From: Gemmatimonadales bacterium
GTDB lineage: Bacteria > Gemmatimonadota > Gemmatimonadetes > Gemmatimonadales > GWC2-71-9
NCBI GenBank assembly: GCA_011772755.1
Contig: WVYX01000293.1
Span: forward strand, 58,949 to 122,948
Length of the DNA: 64,000 bases
Reading direction: 5' to 3'
Part shown: piece after piece, positions 10,736-59,051 of the stretch
Layout of the letters: each line of letters starts with the position of its first letter
How positions within the stretch are numbered: position 1 is the first letter of the stretch
Position numbers and translations under genes: made by a program
Notes under the pieces: model-generated
Seen by the model: only the letters and a program-made list of their open reading frames with translations
What the model was told of the DNA's origin: nothing
Databases searched by the model: none

Positions 10736-11737
10736 TTATCGTGGTCGCATGGGGTTCTGTGGTTCCGGAGCATCAGCCAGTGCGTTTCTGCAGTACTCGA
10801 CACATCTTTTCACCTCGGCCACGGCATCTGAATCTTCGGGGATCTCATACTCAAGTTCAATGTCCGCCGGGAACGTGTATTTGTTCCTTTTCATTAGTTG
10901 CAGAATCAGCCCGAGCGGCGTATCGCCCTCACCAAACGGCATATTGGGACCGTTGTTCAGCTTACGGTCTTTGATGTGCAGGCTGAGAATGCGTCCGGCT
11001 TCGGCATACCTTTCGATGATGGGGATCGGAGACTCGTTCGTCCCGGCGACGTAGTGCCCGACATCGAGATTCATGCCGAGATACTCTCCATGGGAGAAAG
11101 GCGCTTCCCAACTCGAGGCGTTGACCTGCGTATGGTTATGAAAGCCGATCATGATCCTGTGCTCAGCGGCAAATGGAGCCAAGAACCTGGCCTTTTCTTC
11201 CGATATCTCCGTTGTGATGCCTTTGGCGCCGAGCGTCTTGGCGACATTGAAACAGTAGTTCAGCTCGGCTTGCGACATATTGGGGCCGATATCATTGAAC
11301 TTGATGATGTGAATGTTGACCCCCGCATCGTTGTACTTTCTCTTGAGCGCCTGGAATCGATCCATCGAGGCGGACGTGCGCCATTCTTTGATCGCCTCGG
11401 CTCGCGCTTGACGTGCTGCTCGAAATTGGGCGCGCTGTTCCTCTGTGATCTCCTCACCACGGCGCGGCCACCGTGGTTGTTCAAGAGTTGGGGCTCCTGC
11501 AAATTGTTCGGCCGGTTCACCCATGAGCTCAACTGAACTGATGCCGCACTGAATGACGTAGTTCAAAAGGTCATCCGCTGTGCCCGGCATGCTGCGGAAG
11601 CTGTAGGTGATCGTGCCTATCTGCACGCCATTGAATCTCGAATCGGGCTTGACTTTTTCCTGACCGAACAGAGAGCGGGGCACGAGAGGTGTTGCCGCCA
11701 CAGCTGCCGTGTATGCGACAAAATCACGTCTGGTCAT
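10736..11737 (-). CDS. Tat-exported sugar phosphate isomerase/epimerase (xylose isomerase-like TIM barrel)
   Basis: Twin-arginine signal MTRRDFVAYTAAVAATPLV; TIM-barrel family motifs (GFHNH, NLDVGH, LHIKD). Confidence 0.8.
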   Translation of the reverse strand: MTRRDFVAYTAAVAATPLVPRSLFGQEKVKPDSRFNGVQIGTITYSFRSMPGTADDLLNYVIQCGISSVELMGEPAEQFAGAPTLEQPRWPRRGEEITEEQRAQFRAARQARAEAIKEWRTSASMDRFQALKRKYNDAGVNIHIIKFNDIGPNMSQAELNYCFNVAKTLGAKGITTEISEEKARFLAPFAAEHRIMIGFHNHTQVNASSWEAPFSHGEYLGMNLDVGHYVAGTNESPIPIIERYAEAGRILSLHIKDRKLNNGPNMPFGEGDTPLGLILQLMKRNKYTFPADIELEYEIPEDSDAVAEVKRCVEYCRNALADAPEPQNPMRPR

Positions 11738-15385: not shown

Positions 15386-15686
15386 CTCGCACGTACCGAT
15401 CGCCGCGGCGCACCCGCCTTGCCGCGAGCGCGGCTCGTGCTCCGCGGCGATGCGGTACCTGAGCGCGTATTGCACGCCGAGCTCGTCGCGCTCGGTGGCC
15501 CACACATGGTTGTCCCTGAGGATGAGACGCGGCTGCGTTGGGCCGTGCCTCGCCGGAGACGGCCCATGTGCTATTCAGAATGGCGCACGCCCCCAATCTG
15601 GCCTGAGGATCTGCCCCTCATCAGGCCGCTGCTGACGCCCAGGAAGTACGACGAGTTGCTACGATCGCTCGAGGCGCGTCGACCGC

Positions 15687-16046: not shown

Positions 16047-16078
16047 TTTGGTCCTCCTGTGAGTGTTGCGCGGTGGTC

Positions 16079-16160
16079 CGGCGGTCTCGTGGTCGGAGCG
16101 GCGTGGGAGGCGACGTCTCTTCGAGAGCGGGATCGCCGTCGCCATCGCGGCACGGCGAAT
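16079..16160. repeat. Conserved non-coding block X, copy 2
   Basis: See 178-260; begins 33 nt upstream of the GlsB-like start. Confidence 0.7.
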
Positions 16161-16475
16161 GCCCACTAAGGTTCACGCGTTTCGTCGCCTCGCAAGGGTG
16201 ATCCTGGACAGCGTTTGTCGGAGTTGACGGGTGCACGGGAGAGCGCCGCGCCAAACCTCGCGCATCACCCGATAGGGAATTATGAGATTCAGGATCGGGA
16301 CAAAGAACCCGCCCCGGCGGGTCGCAGCCCTGTGGCGAGGTGCTACGGCGGGTTTGGGGAGCAGACATGGGCGTGCGTCGGGCGGAGGTAGCCGCGGACC
16401 GGTGCGAGGTCTCTCCAGCAGGGACCTTCCACCACTGCGCAGCAACGAGGGATCTCTTCCGGGAGGAAAGGCCTA

Positions 16476-28527: not shown

Positions 28528-28703
28528 GGGCGGACCGGCGGGTCGGCGGGTCGGCGGACCGGCGGATCGGCGGTCCGGAGGTCTCGGCGGACTCCGTGGC
28601 CTTGAGGTGTGAGGTTCGAGGTTCGAGGTGCGAGGTGATGGAGGGGAGCACCGTTGCCTCCCTGCGGCCCTCGAACCTCAAACCCCGGACCTCGTACCTC
28701 GTA
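28528..28703. repeat. Octamer array (GGCGGNYC x ~8, 28528-28595) followed by a heptamer-unit inverted repeat (NNGAGGT x5; 28602-28637 / 28668-28703)
   Basis: Read directly; starts 4 nt after the pyk stop. Confidence 0.85.
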
Positions 28704-30926: not shown

Positions 30927-31009
30927 GGGCGGTCCGGCGGTTCGGCGGTCCGGCGGTCGGAAGCACGCCGTCCAGTGCGACCGCCTGTCCGCCTGTCCGT
31001 CCGTCCGCC
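30927..31009. repeat. GGCGGTYC octamer arm (30927-60) with an imperfect complementary arm (30979-31009)
   Basis: Same octamer family as 28528-28595; starts 2 nt after the stop, ends 11 nt before the next start. Confidence 0.8.
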
Positions 31010-35175: not shown

Positions 35176-35254
35176 TCTGTGGTTGTGTGGTTGGTGGTCG
35201 CGTCCGCCCATTGGAGACCACCGCCAGACGATGGCCCAACCACTCACCACAGAC
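35176..35254 (+). terminator. Long imperfect repeat-built hairpin after trkH
   Basis: GTCTGTGGTTGTGTGGTTGGTGGTC ... CCAACCACTCACCACAGAC; shares the 16-nt core TGTGGTGAGTGGTTGG with 54094-54222. Confidence 0.5.
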
Positions 35255-35273
35255 CACGAACCCGAACCCGCTC

Positions 35274-35310
35274 TTGCCGTCATGCCGTCATGCCGTGTTG
35301 CCGTGATGCA
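35274..35310. repeat. TGCCGTSW octamer tandem array (x4-5)
   Basis: TTGCCGTCA TGCCGTCA TGCCGTGT TGCCGTGA TGC; same family as 52746-52844. Confidence 0.8.
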
Positions 35311-35383: not shown

Positions 35384-35480
35384 GCCCCAGGTCCGGGGGG
35401 CGCGTGCGCGCGAACCGCGTCAGGACCGTGAAGGTAGCAGCGCTAAGCGATGACACGCGTCGCTTCGGGTAGCCTGGGGC
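35384..35480 (+). ncRNA. ffs: Small (4.5S-type) signal recognition particle RNA
   Basis: GTCAGGACCGTGAAGGTAGCAGCGCTAAGCGATGAC matches conserved domain IV of E. coli 4.5S (GUCAGGUCCGGAAGGAAGCAGCCAAGGCAGAUGAC, from memory); terminal stem GCCCCAGG/CCTGGGGC then GATTTT; sits just upstream of dnaX as in the B. subtilis scr-dnaX-yaaK-recR arrangement; ends approximate. Confidence 0.8.
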
Positions 35481-35496
35481 GATTTTCGAGTCTCCT

Positions 35497-42380: not shown

Positions 42381-43466
42381 ATGCCTGCGGTAAAGGACTA
42401 CTACCAGGTGCTGGGCGTGCCGGACAAGGCGTCCTCAGGTGAGATCAAGAAGGCCTACCGGAGCCTCGCGAAGAAGTACCACCCGGACGCGAATCCCAAC
42501 AACAAGGCAGCGGCGGAGCGCTTCAAGGAGATCTCCGAGGCGTACACTGTGTTGAGCGATGCCGACAAGCGAAAGCAGTATGACACGATGCGCAAGTACG
42601 GCGCGTTCGGTGGCGGGGCGGGTGGGGCATGGTCGGGACGTCCCGGTGGTGTGCGTTTCGAAGATCTCGATTTTGGCGGCTTTCCCGGCTTCGGTGGCCT
42701 GGGTGATCTGTTCTCATCGATCTTCGGCAAGGGGAAGCGGACTGCGGCCCCCGAGCCCATCGAGGTGGTGGTGGACATCTCGTTCCGGGTCGCCGCCCTC
42801 GGTGGGAAGGTACCGGTGACCATCGGTGTGACCGAGGCCTGTCCCACATGTGGCGGGTCGGGGGCGGCCCCCGGTGCCCAGGTGAGCACCTGCCAGGAGT
42901 GTAAGGGGAGGGGAACCGTCACCTTTGGTCAGGGAGGCTTCGCCGTTACGCGGCCGTGTCCGGCGTGCCGCGGCCGCGGCAAGGTCGCCAGCGAAGCCTG
43001 CTCCCAGTGCGGCGGCCAGGCTGAGGTCTCGGTGAACAAGCGGCTCCTGGTGACGGTGCCACCTGGAACCGACTCCGGGCAGAAGGTGCGGCTCAAGGGC
43101 CAGGGCCAGCGGGGTCAGGACGGCCGGGCTGCGGGTGATCTGGTGGTGACCTTTCAGGTCCAGCCTGATCGGTTCTTCCGACGGGAAGGGTTGGACATCT
43201 ACTGCACCGTACCGGTGAACTTCGCCCAGGCGGCGCTGGGGACCAAGCTCAAGGTGCGCACGCTCGACGGCCGGCATGTGGTGGTGAAGATCCCGCGCGG
43301 TACGCAGCCGGGCCGCAAGTTTCGCATCAGAGGGCAGGGGATCGAGAAGAACCGCCGCCGCGGCGATCAGTTTGTCGAAATCGCCGTCACCATTCCCGAC
43401 AAGCTCACGGCGGAGCAGGAGGAGGTTCTGAAGCAGTTCGCCGATCAGGTGGGGCTGAAGTACTAG
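42381..43466 (+). CDS. dnaJ: Molecular chaperone DnaJ
   Basis: J domain with HPD, G/F region, four CxxCxGxG zinc motifs. Confidence 0.92.
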
Positions 43467-43474
43467 GACCGCAA

Positions 43475-43504
43475 GGGGAGGTGGGGGAGGAGGGGCAGTG
43501 GGGG
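43475..43504 (+). repeat. Canonical G-quadruplex motif (G4-5 x4, 4-nt loops) of the GGGGAGGTGGGGGAG family
   Basis: GGGGaggtGGGGGaggaGGGGcagtGGGGG, 9 nt after the dnaJ stop. Confidence 0.85.
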
Positions 43505-43550
43505 CAGACAGGATGCCCGGCAGGCTCCTGATCGCGCTCAGCTTCACTCG

Positions 43551-44417
43551 CTATGGCTGAATCCACCTCGCCGCGCTGTCCGGTTTAATCTCCCCCATAC
43601 GCTCTACCACGAAGGTCGCTGAGGGTCCGGGAGTCGACCAGCGGATCACTTCTCCGGTGATGTTGGACAGCGTGAAGGCGAAAAACTGCCCCGTGCCCTC
43701 CTCCCCGAGCAGCAGGTGCATGCGGCCCTGGGCGTCCGCCGCGAGATCGGTGAGGTACGCCGCTTCGCTGAATCTCCAGCGGTAACGCCACCGGATGTTC
43801 CCGTTTTGGTTGTACAGGGTCATCGCGCGGCCCGGGACGACATGGAGCACACCGCCTTGCGCCGCCACGACAAAGCCGGTTCGGGTGCTCTGCTCCACGA
43901 GGGCGAAGGTGGTAACGCTGTCGTCGCTGATGGCCGCCAGCCGCCCGCCCGGTGCCTCTACCACGATGCGTCCGTCCGTGAGCACCGCGAATTGGTGCGG
44001 AGCCGACGCAATCGTGTCCGTCGGTATGCGCCGCTCGACCTCCCACTGGGTAGAGAACACGACGATCGATGACCGGCCGGTCTCTACGTCTGACACGTAC
44101 CACTTGCCGGCGTTCTCTTGGATGTGGTGGGGACTGTGCAGCACGTTCCTCGCCCGCGTGTACACGGCGCCAGTGCGCCGGTCACGGACGATCACTTCGG
44201 GAGAGGCTTGGCGGGTGAAGGCGAGCAGCGTGTCGCCGGCGGCGGCAACTGCCCGTCCGTCGACGAAGACGAGGTCCTCCGCCCCCCCCGGCGCGCCGCA
44301 CGCTGCCACTAGGGCGACGGCGGCGACGCCGAGAGCGGGTCGTCGGATCCGTGACCTACAGATCGAAGAAGATACTGATCTGGAGCACCTTGAATGCGGG
44401 TGCGAGTAGGTCGTCAA
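43551..44417 (-). CDS. 6-bladed beta-propeller-like lipoprotein
   Basis: ALGVAAVALVAACG lipobox; blade-like repeats; the only in-frame start upstream of the signal is TTG 44417, overlapping the upstream gene by 62 nt, so the start is uncertain. Confidence 0.6.
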   Translation of the reverse strand: MTTYSHPHSRCSRSVSSSICRSRIRRPALGVAAVALVAACGAPGGAEDLVFVDGRAVAAAGDTLLAFTRQASPEVIVRDRRTGAVYTRARNVLHSPHHIQENAGKWYVSDVETGRSSIVVFSTQWEVERRIPTDTIASAPHQFAVLTDGRIVVEAPGGRLAAISDDSVTTFALVEQSTRTGFVVAAQGGVLHVVPGRAMTLYNQNGNIRWRYRWRFSEAAYLTDLAADAQGRMHLLLGEEGTGQFFAFTLSNITGEVIRWSTPGPSATFVVERMGEIKPDSAARWIQP

Positions 44418-47334: not shown

Positions 47335-48063
47335 ATGGCACAGGCCGCCATCGCCTTCACCGGCACACGATTCGCCCACGACGGGCGGCACATCCTTGGG
47401 CCCTTGGACCTCATGATCCCGCCAGGTGAGACACTGGTGCTGCTCGGCAAGAGTGGCTCGGGTAAGACCACGATGCTGCGGCTGATAAATGCGCTCCTGA
47501 TCCCCACGGGCGGTGAGGTGTTCGTCCTCGGCCGCAGCACGCGTGACTGGGACCCCGTTCGGCTGAGGCGCTCGATCGGCTACGTGATTCAAGAGGTCGG
47601 GCTGTTGCCCCACCTGTCCGTGGCGCGAAACGTCGGACTGGTGCCGGCTTTGGAGCGGTGGTCCGCTGACCGGATCGAGCGTCGCGTCGCGGAGCTCCTG
47701 GACCTGGTCGGTCTCCCAGTGAGGGACTTCGCGGCTCGGCTGCCCCACAAACTCTCGGGCGGTCAGCGCCAGCGGGTGGGAGTGGCCCGCGCCCTGGCGG
47801 CGGATCCGCCGATTCTCCTATGCGACGAGCCATTCGGCGCCGTAGATCCGGTGACGCGGGCCGAACTCCAGCGTGAGTTCAGGGATCTGGCGAAGCGACT
47901 GCGCAAGACGGTGGTCTTTGTGACCCATGACGTGCGTGAGGCGCTGGTGTTGGGGGACCGCGTGGCGCTCATTGAAGCCGGGCTGGTCAGCTTCCTGGGC
48001 TCGCCGAATGACTTCCGCCACAGCGACGACCCAGCCGTCGCCGCCTTCCGCACACTGCTATGA
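47335..48063 (+). CDS. Osmoprotectant-type ABC transporter ATP-binding protein
   Basis: GKSGSGKTT Walker A, LSGGQRQR signature, LLCDEP Walker B; linked to OpuC-like permease and SBP. Confidence 0.85.
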   Translation: MAQAAIAFTGTRFAHDGRHILGPLDLMIPPGETLVLLGKSGSGKTTMLRLINALLIPTGGEVFVLGRSTRDWDPVRLRRSIGYVIQEVGLLPHLSVARNVGLVPALERWSADRIERRVAELLDLVGLPVRDFAARLPHKLSGGQRQRVGVARALAADPPILLCDEPFGAVDPVTRAELQREFRDLAKRLRKTVVFVTHDVREALVLGDRVALIEAGLVSFLGSPNDFRHSDDPAVAAFRTLL

Positions 48064-48698
48064 GCTTCTTTGAGTTTGTGCTCCAGAATCGCGGAGATGT
48101 CTGGTTCCGCACGGTGGAACATCTGGTGCTGGTTGGGATCTCCACAGGCGCGGCGATCGCAATCGGCGTCCCCCTCGGCATCGGGATCTCACGCAGCGCA
48201 AGGCTCCGAGCGCCGGTGCTCGGCGTGGCGAACGTGTTTCAAACCATCCCGAGTCTTGCTCTGTTTGGCTTTCTGATCCCTGTTCCGTTTGTCGGCGGCA
48301 TCGGGGCCCGCACCGCCATTGTGGCCCTGGTACTGTACGCGCTGCTTCCGATCATACGAAACACCTATGCCGGCATCGTGGGTGTCGATCCCGCCGTTCG
48401 GGAAGCAGCCCGGGGGATGGGAATGACTGACGCAGAGCTGCTGCGCTTAGTGGAGCTCCCTCTGGCCGTTCCCGTCATGCTAGCAGGGATCCGCGTTGCG
48501 ACCGTCATCGGGGTGGGGATCGCCACCATTGCGGCCGCGATCGGTGCCGGTGGGCTCGGCGTGTTCATCTTCCAGGGCGTGGCGCTAGTGGACCACGCGG
48601 TGATCCTCGCCGGTGCGGTGCCAGCAGCCCTGTTGGCGTTGATGCTGGATGGAGGACTACATCTGGTGGAGCGGAAGTTGGACTGGAGGGCAAGGTGA
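48060..48698 (+). CDS. Osmoprotectant-type ABC transporter permease
   Basis: 212 aa, BPD-type permease with EAA-like loop (REAARGMGMT). Confidence 0.85.
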   Translation: MSFFEFVLQNRGDVWFRTVEHLVLVGISTGAAIAIGVPLGIGISRSARLRAPVLGVANVFQTIPSLALFGFLIPVPFVGGIGARTAIVALVLYALLPIIRNTYAGIVGVDPAVREAARGMGMTDAELLRLVELPLAVPVMLAGIRVATVIGVGIATIAAAIGAGGLGVFIFQGVALVDHAVILAGAVPAALLALMLDGGLHLVERKLDWRAR

Positions 48699-49678
48699 GG
48701 GGCAGGTGGGGCAGCGGGGGCAAAAGGGGTAGGAGATCTCCCACTCGGCTTGCTCTGCCCCATCTGCCACTCCTCCCCCTCCTCCTGGCGGCTGGTGCGT
48801 GTGGCAGGGGCGATGACACCCTCACCGTAGCCTCCAAGAACTTCACCGAATCAGTGCTCCTCGGCGAAATCGTGGCACAGCAGCTCGAGCGTCATGGGTT
48901 CCACGTGGATCGTCGGCTCAACTTGGGTGGGACGTTCATCTGCCACGAGGCGATGAAGGCGGGACAGGTCGACGTCTACGTCGAGTACACGGGCACGGCA
49001 CACTCGGCGATCTTGGGACTCCCCACCGTCCGTGATCCAGCCAGAGTCCGTCAGGAGGTGGACAGCATCTATCGCGAACGGTGGGGCCTCGTATGGACCG
49101 CGCCCCTGGGCTTCAACAACACGTTTGCCATGCTGGTCCGCCGTGAGGATGCCCGGCGGCTTGGCATCTCGACCTTGTCAGGTGCCGTGCCTCACGCCTC
49201 CGACTGGCGGCCAGGCTTCGGCTACGAGTTCATGCAGCGGGAAGACGGGTATCGTGGGCTGGTGGACACCTATGGGTTCAGCTTCCCGATGCAGCCGGCC
49301 GTGATGGACCTGGGGTTGACCTATCGGGCGCTTGCCGAAGGCCAAGTGGACATCATTGCCGGCAACTCCACCGATGGGCAGATCCAGGCCCTCGAGCTGG
49401 TCCACCTGAGGGACGACAAAGAGTACTTCCCGCCGTACGAAGCCGCACCGGTCGTTCGGTCCCAGGTGCTCACCGCCCGTCCGCAGGTTGGCGCAGCCCT
49501 TGCCGCGCTTGGCGGGACGATTGACCAGGAGACTATGCGACGGCTCAATCGCCTGGTCGATGTGGATCGAAGAGACGTGAAGGAGGTGGCGAGAGAGTTT
49601 CTCGATGGCCTGGGGCATCGGGGACGGGGAGAGGAGGAGGAGATGGGGGAGGTGGGGGAGGGGAGGGTTCGACGCTGA
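48695..49678 (+). CDS. Glycine betaine/choline-type substrate-binding lipoprotein (OpuCC/OsmX-like)
   Basis: GTGA start/stop overlap; LLLAAGAC lipobox; NFTESVLLGEI...YVEYTGT; both ends of the CDS are repeat-derived. Confidence 0.8.
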   Translation: MRGRWGSGGKRGRRSPTRLALPHLPLLPLLLAAGACGRGDDTLTVASKNFTESVLLGEIVAQQLERHGFHVDRRLNLGGTFICHEAMKAGQVDVYVEYTGTAHSAILGLPTVRDPARVRQEVDSIYRERWGLVWTAPLGFNNTFAMLVRREDARRLGISTLSGAVPHASDWRPGFGYEFMQREDGYRGLVDTYGFSFPMQPAVMDLGLTYRALAEGQVDIIAGNSTDGQIQALELVHLRDDKEYFPPYEAAPVVRSQVLTARPQVGAALAALGGTIDQETMRRLNRLVDVDRRDVKEVAREFLDGLGHRGRGEEEEMGEVGEGRVRR

Positions 49679-49717
49679 CTCCCCTCACTCCCCTCCCCCA
49701 CCTCCCCCATCTCCTCC
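49636..49717. repeat. Perfect 30-bp inverted repeat (G-rich / C-rich arms), 22-nt spacer
   Basis: 49636-65 is the exact reverse complement of 49688-717 (checked base by base); lies between convergent genes, with the left arm inside the SBP CDS. Confidence 0.95.
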
Positions 49718-49724
49718 CCTAATC

Positions 49725-50153
49725 TCACCCGAACTCCGCCTTGTCGATCATCTTGACGCCGTTGGCCAGCGTCTTGTGCACGGGGCACCGCTCCACGATC
49801 TGAGCCAGCCGCTTGCGCTGCGCGTCGTCGAAGTCACCGGAGATCCGTACGTGGCTCGTGATCTGGTCAATGAATCCCTTCTTGGGATCGACCGACACCT
49901 CGCGGTCCTCCGCATGGATACGCCCATGCTCATAGGTGGCACTGATGGACTTCAGTACGACGCCCTTGTGGCGACAATACAGCGCCAGGGTGATGAGGGT
50001 GCATGCTGCGAGCGACCCAACGAGAAGCTCGTAGGGGCTCGGTCCGGTGTCGTCGCCGCCGCTTTCCGGCGGCTCGTCGGAGCGCCACGTGTGGCGACCG
50101 TTGGAGAGCGTGACCTCGAGCCCCCTGCGGAGATCGGCAAAGATTCTAGCCAT
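49725..50153 (-). CDS. OsmC family peroxiredoxin-like protein
   Basis: GPSPYELLVGSLAACT and CPVHKTL motifs. Confidence 0.88.
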   Translation of the reverse strand: MARIFADLRRGLEVTLSNGRHTWRSDEPPESGGDDTGPSPYELLVGSLAACTLITLALYCRHKGVVLKSISATYEHGRIHAEDREVSVDPKKGFIDQITSHVRISGDFDDAQRKRLAQIVERCPVHKTLANGVKMIDKAEFG

Positions 50154-50368
50154 GTGGCCTTCTGTCGTTCGGTTTGAGGGTGACGCGCGAGTCAGCCGCC
50201 TTCTGGTTGTACCGGGTACACATGACGGAATGTCACACCACGAGTAGGAAGCCCGCTGCGATCATGGCGAGGCCCAGCCGAAGTGCGGCGCCCGTCCCGC
50301 CGTCGCGCCGGTCCCCCGCTGCCCGCTGCTCCCCGTAGCCGCCCATATGAACGGACATCGCACCGATG

Positions 50369-51130
50369 CTACAACACTGTGTCCAGGAAGCTCACGATGA
50401 TCGCCGCCGCCTGCTCAGCGTGCCGCTGCTGCCCGAATAGGTGGTCTGCATTGGGGATGGCCGCGAACCATCGGGGCTGCTGAGCTGCCGCGAAGATGCG
50501 CTCGCCCTCCTCGATCTCCACGGTGGCGTCCCGGGTGCCATGGACCACGAGAAGCGGACGGCCCAGTTGTCGGATCCGCTCCGGCGAGCAGTGCCGTTCC
50601 AGGTCCCGCAAGAACTGGGCCGAGATCTGGAAGGGTCGGCCCGCGATTCTCACTGTCGCCCGTCCTGCCGCGAGGGCTTGCTCGACGTCGTCTTCGGCGA
50701 AGAGGTGCCGCACGTGGTCAGGGGAAAAAGGGGCGGCGACGGCTACCACTGCCCGGGCACTCGGGGTATTGGCAGCCGCCAGGAGGGTCGCCGCTCCACC
50801 CAGCGAGTGTCCAACCAAGGCACACGGTCTCAACTGCCGAGCTTCCAGGTAACTCGCGGCTGCCTCGATGTCGCTCACGTTGGTGGTGACGTTGGTCTCG
50901 GCGAACTCCCCCTCGCTCTCGCCCAGGCCCGTGAAATCGAACCGGAGCACGGCGTATCCGCCGTCTTCGATCCCGGTGGCGAGGTTCCTGGTCACTTTGA
51001 GTGACCTGGAGCACGTGAAGCAATGGGCGAGAACCACCCCGCCCTTGGGGTGCTCCTCAGGTACCTGAAGGGTGCCGGAGAGCTGACCACCCGAGCCAGG
51101 GAAGGTGACGATCTCGTGGATGTGGGGCAT
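50369..51130 (-). CDS. Alpha/beta hydrolase
   Basis: Trimmed to ATG 51130; GHSLGG nucleophile elbow; 253 aa. Confidence 0.8.
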   Translation of the reverse strand: MPHIHEIVTFPGSGGQLSGTLQVPEEHPKGGVVLAHCFTCSRSLKVTRNLATGIEDGGYAVLRFDFTGLGESEGEFAETNVTTNVSDIEAAASYLEARQLRPCALVGHSLGGAATLLAAANTPSARAVVAVAAPFSPDHVRHLFAEDDVEQALAAGRATVRIAGRPFQISAQFLRDLERHCSPERIRQLGRPLLVVHGTRDATVEIEEGERIFAAAQQPRWFAAIPNADHLFGQQRHAEQAAAIIVSFLDTVL

Positions 51131-51141
51131 CGGAGCAACTG

Positions 51142-51162
51142 GCAATTCGCAATTCGCAATTA
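51142..51162. repeat. GCAATTC heptamer x3
   Basis: GCAATTCGCAATTCGCAATTA, 12 nt upstream of the hydrolase start; same family as 46071-46212. Confidence 0.85.
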
Positions 51163-51214
51163 GCGGTTCGGAGACAAGCATGCGGCGCGGTCCCGAACTG
51201 CCAAGTGTAAACTG

Positions 51215-51583
51215 CTAATCGCTCTCGGCTTTCAGCAATGGCAACTTCTTCAAGCTCTCTTCGTAGGCCTCTGGCGCAGCGTCTCGCAGGGCCGCGCCTG
51301 CGATAGTGCATAGCTTCATGATCTGTTCGTCGCTGAACCCGGCGAGCCTGAGGACGCGCTTCAGTGCCGCCGGAGTCGCCATGGCCAACATCTCGCCGGT
51401 TCGGCCGGCTGAGAACGGTGCCCGCTGCATCCAGGTGCCCGCATCAGGCATCGACCGGCTCACCTGGCTGAACGTCTTGGCGTCCGTAGCGATGCGTACG
51501 GCGATGAAGACGGCCCCCAGGCCCTGCTCCGCCCGGTTCTCGTCGGTACTCAGCTCGCTGGCAACGCGTTGAAGTACGTCCAC
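51215..51583 (-). CDS. Hypothetical protein (DUF2780-like)
   Basis: 122 aa; family assignment from memory only. Confidence 0.5.
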   Translation of the reverse strand: MDVLQRVASELSTDENRAEQGLGAVFIAVRIATDAKTFSQVSRSMPDAGTWMQRAPFSAGRTGEMLAMATPAALKRVLRLAGFSDEQIMKLCTIAGAALRDAAPEAYEESLKKLPLLKAESD

Positions 51584-51592
51584 CGCGGTCTC

Positions 51593-52753
51593 CTAATTGA
51601 TCACACCGCCACCCAGGAGGCGGGCGCCGTCGTACAGCGCCCCCGACTGGCCCGGGGTTATAGCGCGCACCGGTTCCGTCAGTTCGAGGGTCAGGTGACC
51701 GGTTCCATTGGCCGACTGGACGCGCGCCGGTGCCGCCTTGGCCCGGTGACGGACCTGCACCTGACACGCGTCGCCGGCCCCCAGAGGCTCGCCGAGCCAG
51801 TTGATCTCTTCTAGCACCACCTGGTGCCGAAACAGCTGGTCACCGGTGCCCACCACGACGGTCCGGCTTCGCGGCTCGATGGCGACCACGTATAGCGGCT
51901 CAGGAGAGCCGCCAGGGAGCCCTCGGCGCTGTCCCACGGTGTACCGGGCATACCCCCCGTGCTCGCCGATCACTTCGCCGGATGTGGCCCGAATGGGTCC
52001 CGGCGAAAGGGCCGGCGAGTCGGCTGGTAAGTATTTCGCCAGCACGGCGGCATAATCACCGTCCGGTACGAAACAGATCTCCACGGATTCCTGTTTCTCG
52101 GCTGTAACCAAGCCGAGGCGCCGCGCGATGCTGCGGGTCTCGTCCTTGGTCTTGGTGCCCACCGGCGTGAGCATCCGTGCCACCACACGCCGGTCGATGC
52201 CCCATAGAAAATACGACTGATCCTTGGCAGAGTCTCTGCCTCGGAACAGGGCGCCGTCACGAGTGATGGCGTAGTGACCGGTGGCGATGTAGTCGCAATC
52301 CATGGCGTCAGCATGCGCCAGGAGGTCTTTGAACTTGGTGAACGAGTTGCACCGGACACACGGGATGGGCGTGCGGCCGCGGGCGTATTCCGAGACGAAG
52401 TTCTCGATCACGTCAGACCGGAATCGGTCTTCGAGATTCAGGACGTAGTGGGGGATTCCCAGACGCGCTGCCACAGTTGCGGCGTCCCTGATGGAATCCA
52501 ACGAACAGCAGGGACGGTCCGGAACGGTATCGCCGTAGCAGAACAGCTTCATAGTCGCGCCGATGACATCGCGGCCTTCCTCAACCAGCAACGCAGCCGC
52601 CACTGAACTGTCGACACCGCCGGACATGGCGACCAACACGCGCCCCGTGCTCACGATGCTACCTTGAGACGCAGGAGCGGCAGCCGCAGCCCCGCCCAAC
52701 CGCGGCGGAAGGGGCGGCAGGGAACTTGAGACGGCAGCGCAGCACGACGGCAT
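51593..52753 (-). CDS. mnmA: tRNA 2-thiouridine(34) synthase MnmA
   Basis: [14 protein letters not shown]-loop, CC...D, RCN; ATG 52753 lies inside an octamer repeat, so GTG 52654 ([13 protein letters not shown]) is a plausible true start. Confidence 0.88.
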
Positions 52754-52844
52754 GACGGCATTCGCGTGGCTATCCCGTTGCCCGGTCCTGCCGTCCTGCC
52801 GTGGTCCTGTCAAGCTGTTGTGCCGTTGTCCCGTCAATGCCGTA
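52746..52844. repeat. GACGGCAT x2 plus complementary TGCCGTNN octamer units
   Basis: GACGGCATGACGGCAT (52746-61); CTGCCGTC CTGCCGTG ... TGCCGTTG TCCCGTCA ATGCCGTA to 52844. Confidence 0.8.
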
Positions 52845-52854
52845 GGCTCCCTTG

Positions 52855-54048
52855 TCATCGCCCCTCGAGCGCCGCGCTCAGCTTCCGCACCCGCTCCACC
52901 GCGTGCGGCATCACTTCGACGACCCGGGCCACGTCGTCCAGGGTGTTGTCCTTCGAGAAGGAGAACCGGACCGAGGCGGCCGCCAGCTCGGGCGGCAACC
53001 CCATGGCGGTGAGGACATGGGACGGTATTGCGCTGCCCGTGTCGCAGGCCGCACCAGACGAGCAGGCGATGCCGGCGAGGTCGAGCTGCATGAGCAGGGT
53101 CTCGCTGTTGGCCCCCGGGATCGAAATGTTGCTGACGTGCGGGGCCCGGGTCCCACCGGCGCCGTTGACCTGGGCATCCCCTACTTCTGCCAGGAGCCGA
53201 CGCTCCAGCTCGTCGCGCAACTGCCGGGTGGTCACCGCCGTCGCGTCGAGTTCCGCTGCGGCAAGCTGCGCGGCCGCCGCGAGTCCGATGGCACCGGGGA
53301 CGTTTTCGGTGCCTGGCCTGATCCCCAACTCTTGGCCGCCTCCGTGGAGCAGCGGCTCGAGCATCTGCCTGCTGCGGGCGATGAGGGCTCCGATGCCTTT
53401 CGGGGCGCCCATCTTGTGGCCCGATAGACAAAGCAGCGAGATGGGCTGGTCGGCGATGGAGCACGGCACCTTGCCGAGGGCTTGCACCGCGTCGGTGTGA
53501 AACGGCGTATTCGCCGCCGCCGCCCGGCGAGCCAGTTCCGGGATGTCCTGCACGATGCCCACTTCGTTGTTGACCCACATGACACTGAGGAGTGCCACGC
53601 CCTGCTCCAGCGCTGCGCCGACGGCGTCCAGGTCTACCTGACCGGTGTCCCCGACCGGGAGGATGATGGCTTCTCCACCCAGCCGTTCGACTGCCTTGGC
53701 TGACGCCAGCACCGCCTTGTGCTCGATGGCGCTGACCGCCACCGCAAACGGCCGGCCTGCGGAACGGGCTGCCAGCGCCGTGCCAAGCACGGCGAGGTTG
53801 TCCGCCTCGGTGCCTCCGGAGGTGAACAGCACGTCGCCCGGCTCGACGCCGATGACCTCGGCGATGCGTCGCCGAGCCTGTTCGACCGCCTCGCGGGCGG
53901 CCCGGCCCAGCCGGTGCGTGGAGCTGGGGTTCCCGAAGTTCCCCTCGCTGAGGAACGGCTCCATCGCTTCACGGACTTCCCTGCGGACCGGGGTCGTTGC
54001 GGCGCTGTCGAGATAGACGACTCGCTGAGCGGTTGGCGGCGTGTTCAT
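52855..54048 (-). CDS. Cysteine desulfurase (NifS/IscS class)
   Basis: [29 protein letters not shown] (PLP Lys), SSGAAC active-site loop. Confidence 0.9.
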
Positions 54049-54093
54049 GGGCGGGTTGTAAGGTAGGAACGCAAAGCTCTTGGGGAAAGGCCG

Positions 54094-54222
54094 GTGGGAT
54101 GTGGTGAGTGGTTGGCGGTCAGTGGTCGGTTGTCTTGGCAGTCTTGGACCACCGCTCCTGCCAACGGGATCGCTGGCCGATTGGCAACGACCTCAGACCA
54201 CCAACCACTCACCACATCCCAC
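54094..54222. repeat. 27-bp inverted repeat (26/27) with a 75-nt structured spacer
   Basis: GTGGGATGTGGTGAGTGGTTGGCGGTC (54094-120) vs GACCACCAACCACTCACCACATCCCAC (54196-222); inner TTGGCAG/CTGCCAA. Confidence 0.9.
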
Positions 54223-54252
54223 TGACCACGTCCCACACACCATTCAACCACG

Positions 54253-54981
54253 CTACATCGACACCACGCCCATCGTCACGACATCGTCCACTCGCACTGT
54301 CTCATACGTCATGTACGGCTCGCCGTAGCTCGTGCGGATCAGGCTTCCGTAGTGGGCGTTCTGCGTGCGGATGAGGTCGTACAGGTCCTGACCCGTGGGG
54401 AAGATCTCGCCGGCGGTCTTCACTCCGTCAAACTGTGAGCGGTAGCACCGGACCGCCTCCAGCTTGGCGTCGAACTCCGCCGAGATATCCACGACGAACG
54501 TTGGCTTGACAGGATCCTCGCGATAGGCGAGGGCGTAGAGGATCTTGCTCGGCCGATGCGCCTTGCCTCCCGCGGAGTAGTTGCGCAGCCCGGCCAGGAA
54601 ACAAGCGTCCCGGCAGAGTTCCGACGCGATACGATGGTCCGGATGCCGCCCGACGGGGAAGGGGAGAATGACGGTCCTCGGGCGCAATGAGCGGACCAAC
54701 TCCACCACGGTTCGCCGCATGTCATCGCTGTTATGGAGGTGACCGTCCGGCAGGCCGGCGTTCACCCGCTCAGTCACCCCCATTGCCCGCGCCGCCTCGG
54801 CAGCCTCTTCGGTCCGGGTGTGGGGTGTTCCTCGGGTCGCCGTCTCCCCACGAGTGAGGTCCACGATGCCCGTGACGTGTCCTTGCTTGGCGGCCTTGAT
54901 CAAGGTTCCACCACAGCTGAGCTCGACATCGTCGGGGTGAGCCCCGATGGCGAGGAGATCGACCGCCTTCGCCATGTGCAC
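54253..54981 (-). CDS. bshB1: PIG-L/LmbE family deacetylase, BshB1-like (bacillithiol biosynthesis)
   Basis: DLLAIGAHPDDVELSCGGTLIK...GIVDLTRGE...RG pattern. Confidence 0.7.
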   Translation of the reverse strand: MHMAKAVDLLAIGAHPDDVELSCGGTLIKAAKQGHVTGIVDLTRGETATRGTPHTRTEEAAEAARAMGVTERVNAGLPDGHLHNSDDMRRTVVELVRSLRPRTVILPFPVGRHPDHRIASELCRDACFLAGLRNYSAGGKAHRPSKILYALAYREDPVKPTFVVDISAEFDAKLEAVRCYRSQFDGVKTAGEIFPTGQDLYDLIRTQNAHYGSLIRTSYGEPYMTYETVRVDDVVTMGVVSM

Positions 54982-55025
54982 TTCCTCCTCGAGTCTGATG
55001 CGCTGTTGGCTGTGCGCCGTGCGTT

Positions 55026-55085
55026 GTGAAATGTGAAGGGTGAAACGTGAAGCGGCGGTTTCACATTTCGCGTTTCACACTTCAC
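55026..55085. repeat. GTGAA-unit hairpin (~28 pairs incl. 3 mismatches, 3 G-U; GGCG loop)
   Basis: GTGAAATGTGAAGGGTGAAACGTGAAGC / GTTTCACATTTCGCGTTTCACACTTCAC; 39 nt downstream of the last permease stop. Confidence 0.8.
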
Positions 55086-55123
55086 GATTCACAGCGCACC
55101 GCTCACCGCGCACCCAGACCGTG

Positions 55124-56422
55124 TCATTCGTACCGCAGCGCCTCCACCGGATCCAGCCGCGCTGCCCGGTTCGCCGGGAGGAGGCCGAATACCAGCCCGA
55201 TTCCGATCGAAATCCCGGTCGCCACCACGGCGCTCCAGATCGGCACGCCGGTGTCGAACCTGAGCACACCATTGAGTACCTGCCCTGCTCCGAGTCCAAC
55301 GGCTATCCCCACCGCGCCTCCGGCGAATGTGAGTGTCGCCGATTCAATCAAGAACTGCCAGAGGATCTCTCGTCGCGTAGCTCCCATCGCCTTGCGGACG
55401 CCGATCTCTCGAGTGCGGCTGGTCACGGATACCATCATGATGGCCATCACTCCGATACCGCCGACCATCAGCGCTACGCTCGAGAGCACGATCATTACCA
55501 GGAAGAACACACCCGTGAGCTGGTTGAACACGTTCAGAATCTGATCTGACGTGATCATGTCGAAGGTGTTCGGGTCTCCCGGTCTCAGACCCCGCATCCG
55601 GCGGAGCTGCAGCGTGGCCGCGTCCATGGCGGCATCGACGGTGACCCCGTCACGGGGCTTGACCAGGATGAGGAGGGATTGCGTCTCGTCGTACCGAAAC
55701 GCATGTCGCGCGGCCTCGAACGGGACGATGGCTGATATCTCCTGACCGGGGGGCTGGAAGATGTTTTCCGGCTTGCGATACAGCCCTATCACTCTGAACG
55801 CTCGTCCGCCCACCCGCATGACGCGGCGGAGGGGGTTCACTTGGCCGAATACCTTCTCCGCCGCTTCACGTTCGAGTATGACCACGCCGGTCCCGGTGCG
55901 TACCTCTGTGGGCGTGAAGGTCCGGCCCGAGATGATAGCGCCTCCCAGAACCTCCATGAAGCGCTCGTCCGCTCCGTAGACCACGGTGAGTTGGCTGCGC
56001 ACACCCTCGTATTCCAGGCGCTCGAACACACCCACCCAGATGGAGCTGTAGTGGATCTCGGGCAGCCGCTCGATGGCATCGGCTTCTCTCCGTCGGAGGA
56101 CGGGGCGGATGCGCACCTCCCGCGGCAGGGCGTCGGGGTTGAGGGGGGTGGATGAGAAGAACCGGAGGATCCGGAAGGTGGTGGGCCCAACCACCTCCAG
56201 CGTGTTGAAGATCTGGGACCGGATTCCGTGCACGATGGATGCCATGGCCATGACGGTGGCGACCCCGATGATGATGCCGAGGATCGTGAGGGCCGAGCGC
56301 AGCTTCTGCGATCGGATTGCGGCCACTGCCATGCCGGCGCCCTCGGCGAAGTTGACGAACTTCACTGCCCCGCCCCTGTCCCCTGCCACTCCCGGCGGTT
56401 CGGCGGACGGGCGGTCGAGCAT
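55124..56422 (-). CDS. MacB-like ABC permease 4 (FtsX + periplasmic core domain)
   Basis: KLRSALTILGIIIGVATV, C-terminal ...NRAARLDPVEALRYE; alternative GTG start at 56365. Confidence 0.88.
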   Translation of the reverse strand: MLDRPSAEPPGVAGDRGGAVKFVNFAEGAGMAVAAIRSQKLRSALTILGIIIGVATVMAMASIVHGIRSQIFNTLEVVGPTTFRILRFFSSTPLNPDALPREVRIRPVLRRREADAIERLPEIHYSSIWVGVFERLEYEGVRSQLTVVYGADERFMEVLGGAIISGRTFTPTEVRTGTGVVILEREAAEKVFGQVNPLRRVMRVGGRAFRVIGLYRKPENIFQPPGQEISAIVPFEAARHAFRYDETQSLLILVKPRDGVTVDAAMDAATLQLRRMRGLRPGDPNTFDMITSDQILNVFNQLTGVFFLVMIVLSSVALMVGGIGVMAIMMVSVTSRTREIGVRKAMGATRREILWQFLIESATLTFAGGAVGIAVGLGAGQVLNGVLRFDTGVPIWSAVVATGISIGIGLVFGLLPANRAARLDPVEALRYE

Positions 56423-56424
56423 TG

Positions 56425-56446
56425 CGCTTTCCGCTTCCCGCTTCCC
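56425..56446. repeat. GCTTYCC heptamer x3 in the intercistronic spacer
   Basis: GCTTTCC GCTTCCC GCTTCCC G. Confidence 0.7.
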
Positions 56447-56480
56447 GAAGCTCCGTGCAGCATGGGGATTCAGCTCCTCC

Positions 56481-57728
56481 TCACTGCTCGAAGCGAAGTG
56501 CTGCGATGGGGTCCAGCCGCGCCGCCCGAGATGCCGGGTAGACCCCGAAGATGAGCCCTATGCTTGCGCCGAGGCCGAGGGCCACCGAGACCGACCACCA
56601 TGTGATGCGTGCGGGTAGCGGAGAGACCACTGCCACCAGCTGCGCCAGCGCCCAGCCCGCCACGATCCCCAGCAGGCCTCCCAGCGTGGCCAGGGCCACG
56701 GATTCCGCCAAGAACTGTTGCTGGATGTCCGTCCGTCGGGCGCCCACTGATTTGCGGATGCCGATCTCCCGGGTGCGTTCGTGCACGCTCATCAGCATGA
56801 TGTTCATGATGACGATTCCGCCCACCACGATCCCAATCGCCACCACCGCCGGAACCACGGTGAAGATGATCCGGGTGAGGTTTTGCCAGAACGTGATCAA
56901 GCCTTCCGCCGTGTCCACGGTGAAGTCATTGGCCTGGCCCGGACGCAGCTGGCGGGCGATGCGCATGGCTTCCTCCGCCCGCAGCATGGCGTCAGCCACC
57001 TGCGCAGCCTCGGGCATCTTCACCGAGATCACGGTGGTCTGGCGGCGGCCGTACATCGCCTCGAAGAGGGTGAGCGGGAGCATCACGAACCCGTCCATGG
57101 ACTGTCCCAGGACGGTGCCCTTCTTCTCGACGATGCCCTTGACGGCCACCTGAAAGCCTCGGACGCGGATCCTCCTGCCGATGGCGGCGTCGAAGTTGTC
57201 GAACAGCTTGTCGGCTACGTCGAAGCCGAGGATGGCCACACGCCGCCGCTCGCGGACGTCGATTTCCGTCAGCGGCTCGCCAGCCGCGGTCTCGTAGTCC
57301 TGGACAACCTGATAGGGCGCCGTCACGCCCACCACGAGGACGTCCCCCACCGTGCGATTCCGCCAGCTGACGTCCGCCATCGGCGTCGGCCACCCGGACT
57401 GCAGGGCGATAGCTTCGGCGTCAGGGATAGCCCGCGAAACGTAGTCGGCTTCCTCAGGGCGGATGACGGGCCGACGCTGCAGCTCGCGCCACTCCTCGTC
57501 GTCGATCAGCCCAACGGAAATCGGTATGCGCCGGATCTGAAACGCGTTCCGGCCCACGATTGCCCCGGCGAGGTTCTCCCGCACGTAGGCGTTCATTCCC
57601 TGGATGATGGCCACCACGGCAACGAGGAAGGCTACCGAGACGATGATGCCGAGCAGGGTGAAGAACGACCGCAACTTGTGGTTGGCGATCTCTCGGAGGG
57701 CGAGACGGAGTCCTTCGAGAAGAGGCAT
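56481..57728 (-). CDS. MacB-like ABC permease 3
   Basis: HKLRSFFTLLGIIVSVA..., ...SRAARLDPIAALRFEQ. Confidence 0.88.
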   Translation of the reverse strand: MPLLEGLRLALREIANHKLRSFFTLLGIIVSVAFLVAVVAIIQGMNAYVRENLAGAIVGRNAFQIRRIPISVGLIDDEEWRELQRRPVIRPEEADYVSRAIPDAEAIALQSGWPTPMADVSWRNRTVGDVLVVGVTAPYQVVQDYETAAGEPLTEIDVRERRRVAILGFDVADKLFDNFDAAIGRRIRVRGFQVAVKGIVEKKGTVLGQSMDGFVMLPLTLFEAMYGRRQTTVISVKMPEAAQVADAMLRAEEAMRIARQLRPGQANDFTVDTAEGLITFWQNLTRIIFTVVPAVVAIGIVVGGIVIMNIMLMSVHERTREIGIRKSVGARRTDIQQQFLAESVALATLGGLLGIVAGWALAQLVAVVSPLPARITWWSVSVALGLGASIGLIFGVYPASRAARLDPIAALRFEQ

Positions 57729-57750
57729 GGAGGCAATCTACTCAAGGGGG

Positions 57751-57816
57751 AGGTGGGGGAGATGGGGGAGGTGATCAATCATGTCTTCTCTCCCTCCTCC
57801 CCCATCTCCCCCACCT
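57751..57816. repeat. Perfect 21-bp inverted repeat, 24-nt spacer, between two permease genes
   Basis: 57751-71 is the exact reverse complement of 57796-816 (checked); contains the GGGGAGGTGGGGGAG core. Confidence 0.95.
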
Positions 57817-57818
57817 AA

Positions 57819-59051
57819 TCACTCATACCGTAGTGCCTCTACCGGATCCAGTCTCGCCGCCCGGGCGGCGGGATAGAGGCCAAAAGCGACACCCGTCAGG
57901 ATCGACATTCCCAGGGCCGCAACCACGGAGAACATGGGCACCTTGGCTGGCAGCGGCGTCGCGTTGGCGACGATGAAACTGATGCCGCCGCCCAGGAGCA
58001 TGCCGATGGCGCCGCCCACGGCGGTGAGCGTGGCTGCCTCAACCAGGAACTGCCACAGGATCTCCCGGCGCTTTGCACCCAGTGCCTTGCGCACGCCGAT
58101 CTCTCGGGTGCGCTCGGTGACCGAGATCATCATGATGGCCACGACGCCCACGCCACCCACCATGAGCCCAACGCTGGAGAGGGCAATCATCACCAGGAAG
58201 AACATGCCGGTCACCTGGTTCCAGCTGTCCAGCAGTTTGTCCTGCGTCACGATGGCGAAGTTGTTCTCCTCGGCTGGGCGGAGCTCGCGCATCGAGCGCA
58301 TGACGGCCGTGACATCCTCGATGGCAGCCTGAACCGTGGTGTTTTCCTTCGGCGTGACCAGAAAGTCCATCCAACCCCGCCAGTGGGGGATGTACTTCGA
58401 GAAGGCGGAGTGCGGTATGACCGCTTCAGGCCGGTTGCCCTCGCCGAAGATGTCGGGGGGCGGGATATACACGCCGATCACCTCGAACGGCACGCCTGAG
58501 ATCTTGATCCATTTGCCGATAGGATCCAGCAGGCCGAACATCTCGCTCGCCAGCTTCTCGTTCACCACCACGACGCGGGAACTCGCCGCGTACTCCAGGT
58601 TGGTGAACGAACGACCCGGCATGATGTCCCCGGACACTTCGGCCCACCGGGCGCCCCGCCCCCGGATGCTGACCGACTCGAGCTTGCGATTGCCGTGCTC
58701 CACCTCGCGGCCTGCCCCCTCATCCACCACGACGCGGTGAATGGTGGGCAGCTGGGCGATCCGGTCAGCCTCCTCGACTGTCAGGGGTGGGTTGCGGCGC
58801 CATGGGCTCATCTCGTCAGACCCGTCGGAGACCTGGATTCCCGCCTGGAAAAAACGGAACACGAAGAACGTGCGGGGTCCCAGCTGGTTGAAGATGTCCT
58901 CCACGCCCCGGTTGATGCCGGTGATCATGGAGCCGATCACCATGACCACCATGACGCCGATGGCGACGCCGAGGATGGTGAGGGCCGCTCGCACCTTGCT
59001 GGCCCGGAGTGAAGCGAGCGCGATGCCGACGCCTTCAAACAGCTGAGTCAT
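57819..59051 (-). CDS. MacB-like ABC permease 2
   Basis: SKVRAALTILGVAIGV..., ...ARAARLDPVEALRYE. Confidence 0.88.
   Translation of the reverse strand: MTQLFEGVGIALASLRASKVRAALTILGVAIGVMVVMVIGSMITGINRGVEDIFNQLGPRTFFVFRFFQAGIQVSDGSDEMSPWRRNPPLTVEEADRIAQLPTIHRVVVDEGAGREVEHGNRKLESVSIRGRGARWAEVSGDIMPGRSFTNLEYAASSRVVVVNEKLASEMFGLLDPIGKWIKISGVPFEVIGVYIPPPDIFGEGNRPEAVIPHSAFSKYIPHWRGWMDFLVTPKENTTVQAAIEDVTAVMRSMRELRPAEENNFAIVTQDKLLDSWNQVTGMFFLVMIALSSVGLMVGGVGVVAIMMISVTERTREIGVRKALGAKRREILWQFLVEAATLTAVGGAIGMLLGGGISFIVANATPLPAKVPMFSVVAALGMSILTGVAFGLYPAARAARLDPVEALRYE

Follow-up and report, generated by a model that had tools for sequence, protein, structure and literature searches.

A stable, repeat-armed stem-loop between two convergent genes of a Gemmatimonadales genome

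How are the ends of genes marked in bacterial phyla of high GC content, in which U-tract terminators are few? A locus that bears on this question is found in a stretch of 64,000 nucleotides from the metagenome-assembled genome of a Gemmatimonadales bacterium (GenBank assembly GCA_011772755.1, contig WVYX01000293.1, positions 58,949 to 122,948 of the forward strand; hereafter the window), where a gene for a glycine-betaine type ABC substrate-binding protein and a gene of the OsmC family converge on a long and perfectly paired inverted repeat. An earlier note, made from the letters of the window, had proposed that this repeat acts as a bidirectional terminator or as a barrier to transcription and replication, and that its insertion had extended the binding-protein open reading frame (ORF). 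The best explanation of the evidence collected here is that the junction hairpin falls into a class of hairpins with repeat-built arms, which the source genome and its relatives carry directly past stop codons. It is probably a REP-like 3'-end hairpin, grown by slippage, that protects or insulates two convergent transcripts, a function read only from its position and stability.

The stem-loop and the genes that meet on it

The coordinates of the junction and of the other features are collected in Table 1. The left arm (GGAGGAGATGGGGGAGGTGGGGGAGGGGAG) and the right arm are reverse complements of each other over 30 bp without a mismatch, with 22 nt between them; direct sequence comparison thus bore out the geometry that the earlier note had described, including the position of the left arm inside the binding-protein coding sequence, with the TGA lying in the loop. 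No arm match was obtained in any shuffle of the window sequence that kept its dinucleotide composition. The RNA minimum free energy of the extended stem is -92.1 kcal/mol for the plus strand (z = -7.2 against shuffles) and -93.2 kcal/mol for the minus strand (z = -6.6), and its DNA fold reaches -48.7 kcal/mol (z = -7.6). The junction is also, by a wide margin, the most stable 110-nt segment of the 64 kb (-87.7 kcal/mol, against a mean of -39.4 and a standard deviation of 8.1). An assembly artefact is ruled out by the presence of the same 30-bp stem in an independently assembled contig, here called L205 (Logan ERR2564004; 99.6% identity over 9.2 kb, window 47596-56813), and by four NCBI accessions for a binding protein with the identical tail (NIM50108.1, NIN11286.1, NIN49885.1 and NIP07349.1). 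At the gathering threshold of Rfam 15 the junction hairpin is unmatched, the sole match in the window being an SRP RNA at 35385-35482. On both transcripts, the right arm and its 3' flank make up a G-free, C-rich stretch of ~50 nt.

The binding-protein gene is preceded by genes for an ABC ATPase and a permease, as judged from Pfam domains in a scan that covered 15 of roughly 50 window ORFs. The GTG with which it starts shares nucleotides with the stop codon of the permease gene (GTGA), and an equivalent overlap, as ATGA, is found in two of the related loci compared with the window, L001 and L204. The ORF ends in GEEEEMGEVGEGRVRR and then the TGA, while the OsmC stop codon is separated from the end of the right arm by 7 nt (CCTAATC) and the OsmC C-terminus carries no extension. 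In ~80 orthologous loci, the part of the binding protein that follows the OpuAC domain is usually 4 residues long and rarely exceeds 13, as against 23 here, and the EEEEMGEVGEG tail is conserved in no orthologue among them. Since neither the G-rich nor the C-rich arms contain stop codons, an ORF that enters an arm stays open until the loop. The tail, which is specific to this lineage, has therefore arisen passively, by the ORF running on into the G-rich arm, where no stop codon interrupts it. Acidic and rich in glycine, it is probably a tolerated by-product rather than a functional module. The orthologue alignment, which the earlier note had named as the check on lineage specificity, agrees with this, as no orthologue keeps the tail without the palindrome.

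Table 1. Features of the binding-protein/OsmC junction, other repeat-built elements of the window, and the same junction in relatives.
Feature	Sequence	Positions	Strand	Remarks
ABC substrate-binding protein gene, glycine-betaine type	window	48695-49678	+	OpuAC Pfam domain, residues 41-304 of 327; TGA at 49676-78
Codons of lineage-specific 23-residue tail, GLGHRGRGEEEEMGEVGEGRVRR	window	49607-49675	+	beyond the Pfam domain
Extended imperfect stem-loop, ~41 pairs	window	~49625-49732		~-92 kcal/mol as RNA, either strand
Perfect inverted repeat, left arm, G-rich	window	49636-49665		within 9-nt tandem array 49627-49661
Spacer/loop, 22 nt	window	49666-49687		holds binding-protein TGA and one ACTCCCCTC copy
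Perfect inverted repeat, right arm, C-rich and G-free	window	49688-49717		carries 9-nt array at 49692-49714
Convergent OsmC-family gene	window	49725-50153	-	stop 49725-27, at base of extended stem
Hairpin, GAGGTKC units	window	28604-28701		after pyruvate kinase stop
Hairpin, GGCGGTCC units	window	30928-31009		after BrkB-like stop
Single-arm G-rich 9-nt array, four G-tracts, G4 motif	window	43475-43507	+	8 nt past DnaJ stop
Imperfect hairpin, GGGGCAGNN units	window	48697-48772	+	permease/binding-protein junction, translated in frame
Hairpin, GGTNAGT units	window	54094-54251		after PIG-L deacetylase stop
Hairpin, GTGAAAN units	window	55018-55095		after MacB-like stop
Hairpin, GGGGGAGRT units	window	57746-57816		21-bp perfect stem, -55 kcal/mol, z = -4.8
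Binding-protein/OsmC junction	window and L205			GGGGGAGRT hairpin, G-rich arm first
Binding-protein/OsmC junction	L001			nearest relative, protein 76% identical; hairpin degenerate and shorter, its right arm (GACTCCCGCTTCCCCCCATCTCCATCCTCAC) recognizably alike; tail of 17 residues
Binding-protein/OsmC junction	L124	10885-10965		unrelated purine-first hairpin, GTAGGAA units
Binding-protein/OsmC junction	L203	3470-3562		unrelated C-first hairpin, CCGTNNN units, -65.6 kcal/mol
Binding-protein/OsmC junction	L126			20-nt spacer, unstructured (z = +0.5)
Binding-protein/OsmC junction	L002			binding-protein and OsmC genes overlap, hairpin absent

Repeat-built arms at the ends of genes

The arms of the junction hairpin are themselves tandem repeats. 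Tandem Repeats Finder resolves the left arm into a 9-nt array of GGGGGAGGT (3.9 copies) and the right arm into a complementary 9-nt array of CCTCCCCCA (2.6 copies), with two perfect copies of ACTCCCCTC at 49678-49695; the consensus unit, of 9 nt, is GGGGGAGRT. The units within an arm match each other at only ~76%, yet the arms are complementary at 30 of 30 positions, and the variant units (GAT, GGT and GGG) follow in mirrored order. Independent slippage in each arm would not produce such a pattern, which points to copying from arm to arm or to strong selection for pairing. In the proposed mechanism the arms would grow by replication slippage of repeat units, and their complementarity would be kept by template switching within the hairpin (arm-to-arm copying), by pairing selection, or by both. 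Template switching that homogenizes and expands the arms of inverted repeats has been documented (PMC13100816), and such quasi-palindrome correction and inverted-repeat expansion is known mainly from reporter systems in yeast and Escherichia coli (PMC13100816, PMC3820800). The same process would account for the perfect complementarity and the concerted growth of the arms, and at this locus it is deduced solely from the way in which the variant units of the two arms mirror each other.

Comparison with L205 indicates that the repeats are still changing. Over the shared 9.2 kb, the two sequences differ at only three places, one single-nucleotide polymorphism and two indels, and each indel consists of whole repeat units. 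The first indel is a 9-nt ACTCCCCTC unit of the hairpin, present twice in the window and once in L205, where the loop is accordingly 13 nt instead of 22 nt; the second, of 24 nt at 56402 (L205 8798), comprises three 8-nt GGCGGWYC units; it spans eight codons and keeps the reading frame of the MacB-like gene on the minus strand (55124-56422) in whose 5' end it lies. Near-identical strains thus differ by whole units, so that slippage is ongoing, and in this sample of window and L205 it is at least as frequent as point substitution. The one-unit difference, together with the degenerate homologue in L001, favours growth in place by slippage over a single insertion. Of the proposal that insertion of the repeat had extended the ORF, the extension therefore stands, given the length of the tail, and the insertion gives way to slippage growth as the better fit. 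The junction can be taken as a clean, population-supported example of how hairpins at gene ends arise and change through slippage with mirrored arms.

About nine other hairpins with arms of 7-9-nt tandem repeats are present in the window, nearly all of them directly past stop codons. Long gapless inverted repeats number six, as against 0.43 expected from Markov simulations, with several bulged ones added by folding, and the longest inverted match is 32, as against 19 in the simulations. The genes that precede these hairpins (pyruvate kinase, a BrkB-like protein, three MacB/FtsX permeases and a PIG-L deacetylase) are unrelated housekeeping genes. One hairpin (57746-57816) is built from the same unit as the junction hairpin; its place is between two MacB/FtsX-like genes, with a stop codon 2 nt away and CTAATC following at 57815-57820, and its loop and outer flanks are unrelated to those of the junction. 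Beyond the window, 47 long inverted repeats were counted in 750 kb of related metagenome contigs around orthologous transporter loci; many have arms made of their own 7-9-nt units, and most lie between -6 and +30 nt from a stop codon. At the binding-protein/OsmC junction itself, the convergent gene order is kept in several relatives while the intervening sequence varies (Table 1), and the occurrence of hairpins of different sequence at one junction implies that strong hairpins have originated there repeatedly.

The order of the arms follows a tendency only. All six gapless hairpins of the window, and the bulged ones inspected, have the G-rich arm first, whichever strand is read; as a rule this polarity was rejected, the related loci having 13 G-first, 7 C-first and 27 neutral hairpins, and L203 having a C-first hairpin at the binding-protein/OsmC junction.

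Hairpins of this kind also spill into coding sequence, at the junction as a C-terminal tail and at the permease/binding-protein junction as a segment of a signal peptide, so that the binding-protein cistron of the window is bracketed by two hairpins. In the upstream hairpin (48697-48772) the G-rich arm encodes a Gly/Arg-rich stretch (RGRWGSGGKRGRR) and the C-rich arm a hydrophobic Leu/Pro-rich stretch (LALPHLPLLPLLL) ahead of the lipobox cysteine, the whole being translated as the N-terminal part of the signal peptide. The start chosen by NCBI is a CTG inside this hairpin (304 aa), as against the conserved GTGA overlap, which gives 327 aa. Among relatives, L204 has a much stronger hairpin here (2498-2586; -60.9 kcal/mol, z = -5.8), the stem of which takes in the ATG, and L203 has an in-frame translated one (2515-2620), while L001 lacks a hairpin at this junction and has a 14-residue signal peptide. 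For annotation this means that low-complexity stretches of Gly/Glu/Arg or Pro/Leu by which an ORF is extended at either end can, in such genomes, be translated arms instead of functional domains.

Possible roles and origins of the junction hairpin

If the hairpin serves the two genes on either side, transcripts from either of them would fold into a hairpin of ~41 bp, which would define the 3' ends of both mRNAs, shield them from 3'-to-5' exonucleases and limit transcription that runs on, antisense, into the gene opposite; as a U-tract is absent, factor-dependent termination alongside the hairpin is probable. Several observations weigh against such a protective or insulating role, or against purely local growth. 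Because the binding-protein stop codon lies in the loop, a ribosome terminating there would hold the stem open on the plus strand, and for the nascent 5' arm by itself a G-quadruplex (G4) fold is predicted, which complicates a role for the hairpin. L126 and L002 keep the gene pair without a hairpin, from which it follows that the hairpin is dispensable. Of such hairpins, 24 lie between tandem, 13 between convergent and 5 between divergent genes, where ~21, 11 and 10 would be expected from intergenic length, so that the enrichment at 3' ends over divergent regions is only modest, and these counts rest on crude gene calls. Finally, the unit and the CTAATC flank shared by two hairpins of the window hint at copying between loci.

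Dispensability also enters the reading that survives best among the alternatives, in which the hairpin is a functionless by-product of mutation: slippage and template switching would make hairpins that are merely tolerated in short 3' spacers. The two repeat indels against one point change between the strains, the lack of a hairpin in some relatives with the same gene order, and the different units of different hairpins are all in keeping with it. A by-product would not, though, be expected to cluster tightly at stop codons, as these hairpins do, instead of scattering over intergenic DNA, nor does the recurrence of strong hairpins of unrelated sequence at the binding-protein/OsmC junction in at least three lineages sit well with it, and on balance this reading appears unlikely.

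Copying between loci leads to a further alternative, namely that the 3' end of the binding-protein gene received a copy of a small mobile palindromic element, similar to REP/REPIN or MITE elements. Next to the C-rich arm stands CTAATC (49719-49724, plus strand; GATTAG on the OsmC sense strand). This hexamer occurs five times in the window, and two of these sites adjoin the two GGGGGAGRT hairpins; it abuts the C-rich arm in all three of the G-rich 9-mer hairpins that adjoin a minus-strand stop codon. Unit and flank are thus shared with the second hairpin (57746-57820), and in L204 a similar unit makes up two hairpins, one of them beside a CTAATC (4303-4308). The hexamer may mark a dispersed element, as a tag, or may have been kept next to the arm by selection. 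That dispersed palindromes exist in the source genome is clear from a different, imperfect palindrome of which the window holds two copies, at 150-265 (-67 kcal/mol) and 16055-16170 (-65 kcal/mol), ~81% identical over ~95 nt, and which constitutes a dispersed palindromic repeat family. Against insertion, the loops and outer flanks of the two GGGGGAGRT copies are unrelated; the GTAG or CGTC tag of REP elements is absent from the hairpin flanks, where GATTAG/CTAATC stands instead; no direct repeat or target-site duplication is evident around the stem, with empty-site relatives too diverged to define insertion boundaries; the degenerate homologue at the same site in L001 argues for age and change in place; and the strains differ by a repeat-unit indel, not by presence or absence. 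A broader family defined by TTAG plus a G-rich arm was rejected, as only two window hairpins qualify in the window and 84 related loci.

A scan of a genome collection for the shared 16-mer GGAGRTGGGGGAGRTG found at least 120 loci, those listed being coding or chance matches and cyanobacterial tandem arrays; the coding matches read GAG ATG GGG GAG GTG, that is EMGEV. None of the matches listed has an inverted G-first partner within 200 nt (L093 has a partial, C-first one). This lack of hairpins among the matches listed speaks against a mobile element, while the scan as a whole is uninformative about a mobile family. Insertion of such an element is distinctly unlikely. As a separate observation, the cyanobacterial loci (L005, L011, L053, L118 and others, from Nostoc, Coleofasciculus, Laspinema and relatives) carry long, one-stranded arrays of the GGGGGAGAT type, in which the unit is as in the junction hairpin and the inverted partner is absent.

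One role put forward by the earlier note is that of a bidirectional terminator. In its canonical, Rho-independent form, with the hairpin alone halting polymerase from both genes, this role finds no support in the sequence. A very stable GC-rich hairpin does lie exactly between two convergent stop codons, and in bacteria the DNA downstream of transcription ends is strongly enriched in inverted repeats (PMC13155455). An intrinsic terminator, though, comprises a GC-rich RNA hairpin, a U-tract of 7-9 nt directly 3' of it and, if it is to act in both directions, a 5' A-tract as well. The first is present at the junction (~-92 kcal/mol, z ~-7). A U-tract is absent 3' of the stem on either strand, the 3' flanks being CCUAAUCUCA / CCTAATCTCA on the plus strand and UCCUCCUCUC / TCCTCCTCTC on the minus strand; an A-tract is absent 5' of it; and a scan for consensus terminators and promoters does not list the site. 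Hairpins without a U-tract failed to terminate mycobacterial RNA polymerase in vitro, in the one high-GC system that was assayed in that study (PMC3993855). Sister hairpins, moreover, occur where neighbouring genes run in the same direction, and even within the start of the binding-protein gene, and not all of them can therefore be efficient terminators. An intrinsic terminator is accordingly improbable here.

A bolder extension of the protective reading, and a decidedly doubtful one, is that the repeat-armed hairpins of Gemmatimonadota are a self-renewing punctuation of gene ends that doubles as coding sequence, provides bidirectional factor-dependent terminators and is a source of signal peptides. 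Slippage and arm-to-arm copying would, again and again, give rise to new and very strong hairpins at the same junctions. The usual polarity of the window hairpins, with a G4-prone G-rich arm ahead of a G-free C-rich one on the transcripts of both strands, would make them a switch: a ribosome or a G4 on the 5' arm would expose the C-rich arm of ~50 nt as a Rho-loading site, a suggestion derived from the G-free, C-rich stretch on both transcripts, which resembles such a site if exposed; the hairpin would form afterwards and protect the trimmed 3' end. Translated arms, first Gly/Arg-rich and then Leu/Pro-rich, would provide signal peptides with their n- and h-regions.

With regard to structures in DNA, the earlier note described the arms as G4-prone, and canonical G4 motifs are found in the 5' arm of each strand (49645-49667, plus; 49690-49719, minus). 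In a fold that permits G4, the full hairpin wins at -92 kcal/mol, and a G4 is predicted only when the nascent 5' arm stands alone. That a G-quadruplex, i-motif or cruciform blocks or pauses replication or transcription is very improbable, for although these motifs, the stability of the DNA hairpin and the G4 and i-motif structures that related G-rich repeats form in vitro (PMC4692102) lend it some colour, the full hairpin prevails over the G4 and the arms of sister hairpins, e.g. GTGAAAN, GAGGTTC and CCGTNNN, are devoid of G4 potential.

Relation to known repeats and other arrays in the window

The nearest counterparts of the junction hairpin are the G-rich repeats of Xanthomonas and Nostoc (GGGAATC / GGGGAYT; Rehm et al. 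2015), which have 7-nt units, preferably four of them (PMC4692102). In Xanthomonas these repeats preferentially lie at most 50 bp from a stop codon or overlap it, with the G-rich strand as the coding strand; 70-75 convergent inverted pairs are present per genome, and the length of the repeats varies between close species. They are rarer between divergent genes and have no established function (PMC4692102). The junction hairpin shares with this class its make-up of G-rich units, 6-9 nt long and repeated in tandem, that give four G-tracts or more (period 9 and 3.9 copies here); the position at stop codons, its G-rich arm overlapping the 3' end of the binding-protein gene on one strand and starting 7 nt past the OsmC stop on the other; the occurrence as single arrays or as convergent plus/minus pairs able to form stem-loops; the variation in unit number among close relatives (one 9-nt unit between window and L205); and, with the other hairpins of its kind, the under-representation between divergent genes. 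It agrees with the class in all its sequence-level features, with G4 formation as a prediction only. It differs in its 9-nt GGGGGAGRT unit, its phylum and its perfectly complementary 30-nt arms, and in that the source genome also builds hairpins from many unrelated units, some without G4 potential. The junction hairpin is thus a local example of a known element type, and no new molecular system.

Other known elements resemble it in part. Those of the REP/BIME/REPIN group are likewise short palindromes just past coding regions, some of them inside genes, that are transcribed as RNA hairpins, and roles in termination and mRNA stabilization have been proposed for them; they are characterized by an unpaired GTAG or CGTC tag, by RAYT (IS200/IS605-like tyrosine) transposases and by high-copy families of shared sequence (PMC3733652, PMC3116915). 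Here, in contrast, the flank is GATTAG, the arms are tandem repeats, and one unit is common to only two copies in 64 kb. The 'I-shaped' putative terminators without U-tracts of high-GC Actinobacteria are also strong GC-rich hairpins past stop codons in a high-GC genome; unlike the present hairpin they were proposed to be intrinsic terminators, failed in vitro with the mycobacterial polymerase (PMC3993855) and lack arms of tandem repeats. The known precedent for palindromes that are translated in frame is given by the Rickettsia palindromic elements, conserved mobile families of ~150 bp inserted at internal positions of protein genes (PMC10969869). Palindromic DNA translated as part of a host protein, which survives it, is common to both, but what is translated here (the C-terminal tail and the N-terminal signal-peptide segment) is a low-complexity arm at the extreme ends of the ORF.

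A few further repeats complete the picture. On a more distant metagenome contig, L137 (53% identity), two hairpins (11388-11486 and 15384-15479) share GAATTTGGGGACAGAGACCAATTTCC... in perfect arms of 33-35 bp; each lies directly past a stop codon, and the pair looks like a REP-like dispersed family. The single-arm array past the DnaJ gene (43475-43507) was considered for a distant pairing partner, which was rejected, as 43460-43625 folds no better than shuffles (z = -0.17). Upstream of the hairpin that follows the pyruvate kinase gene, a non-palindromic array of GGCGGATC (5.6 copies, 28529-28592) starts 5 nt past the stop codon. Ahead of the bacterial small SRP RNA, at 35178-35309, lie two tandem arrays of 8-nt units, TGTGGTTG and TGCCGTCA.

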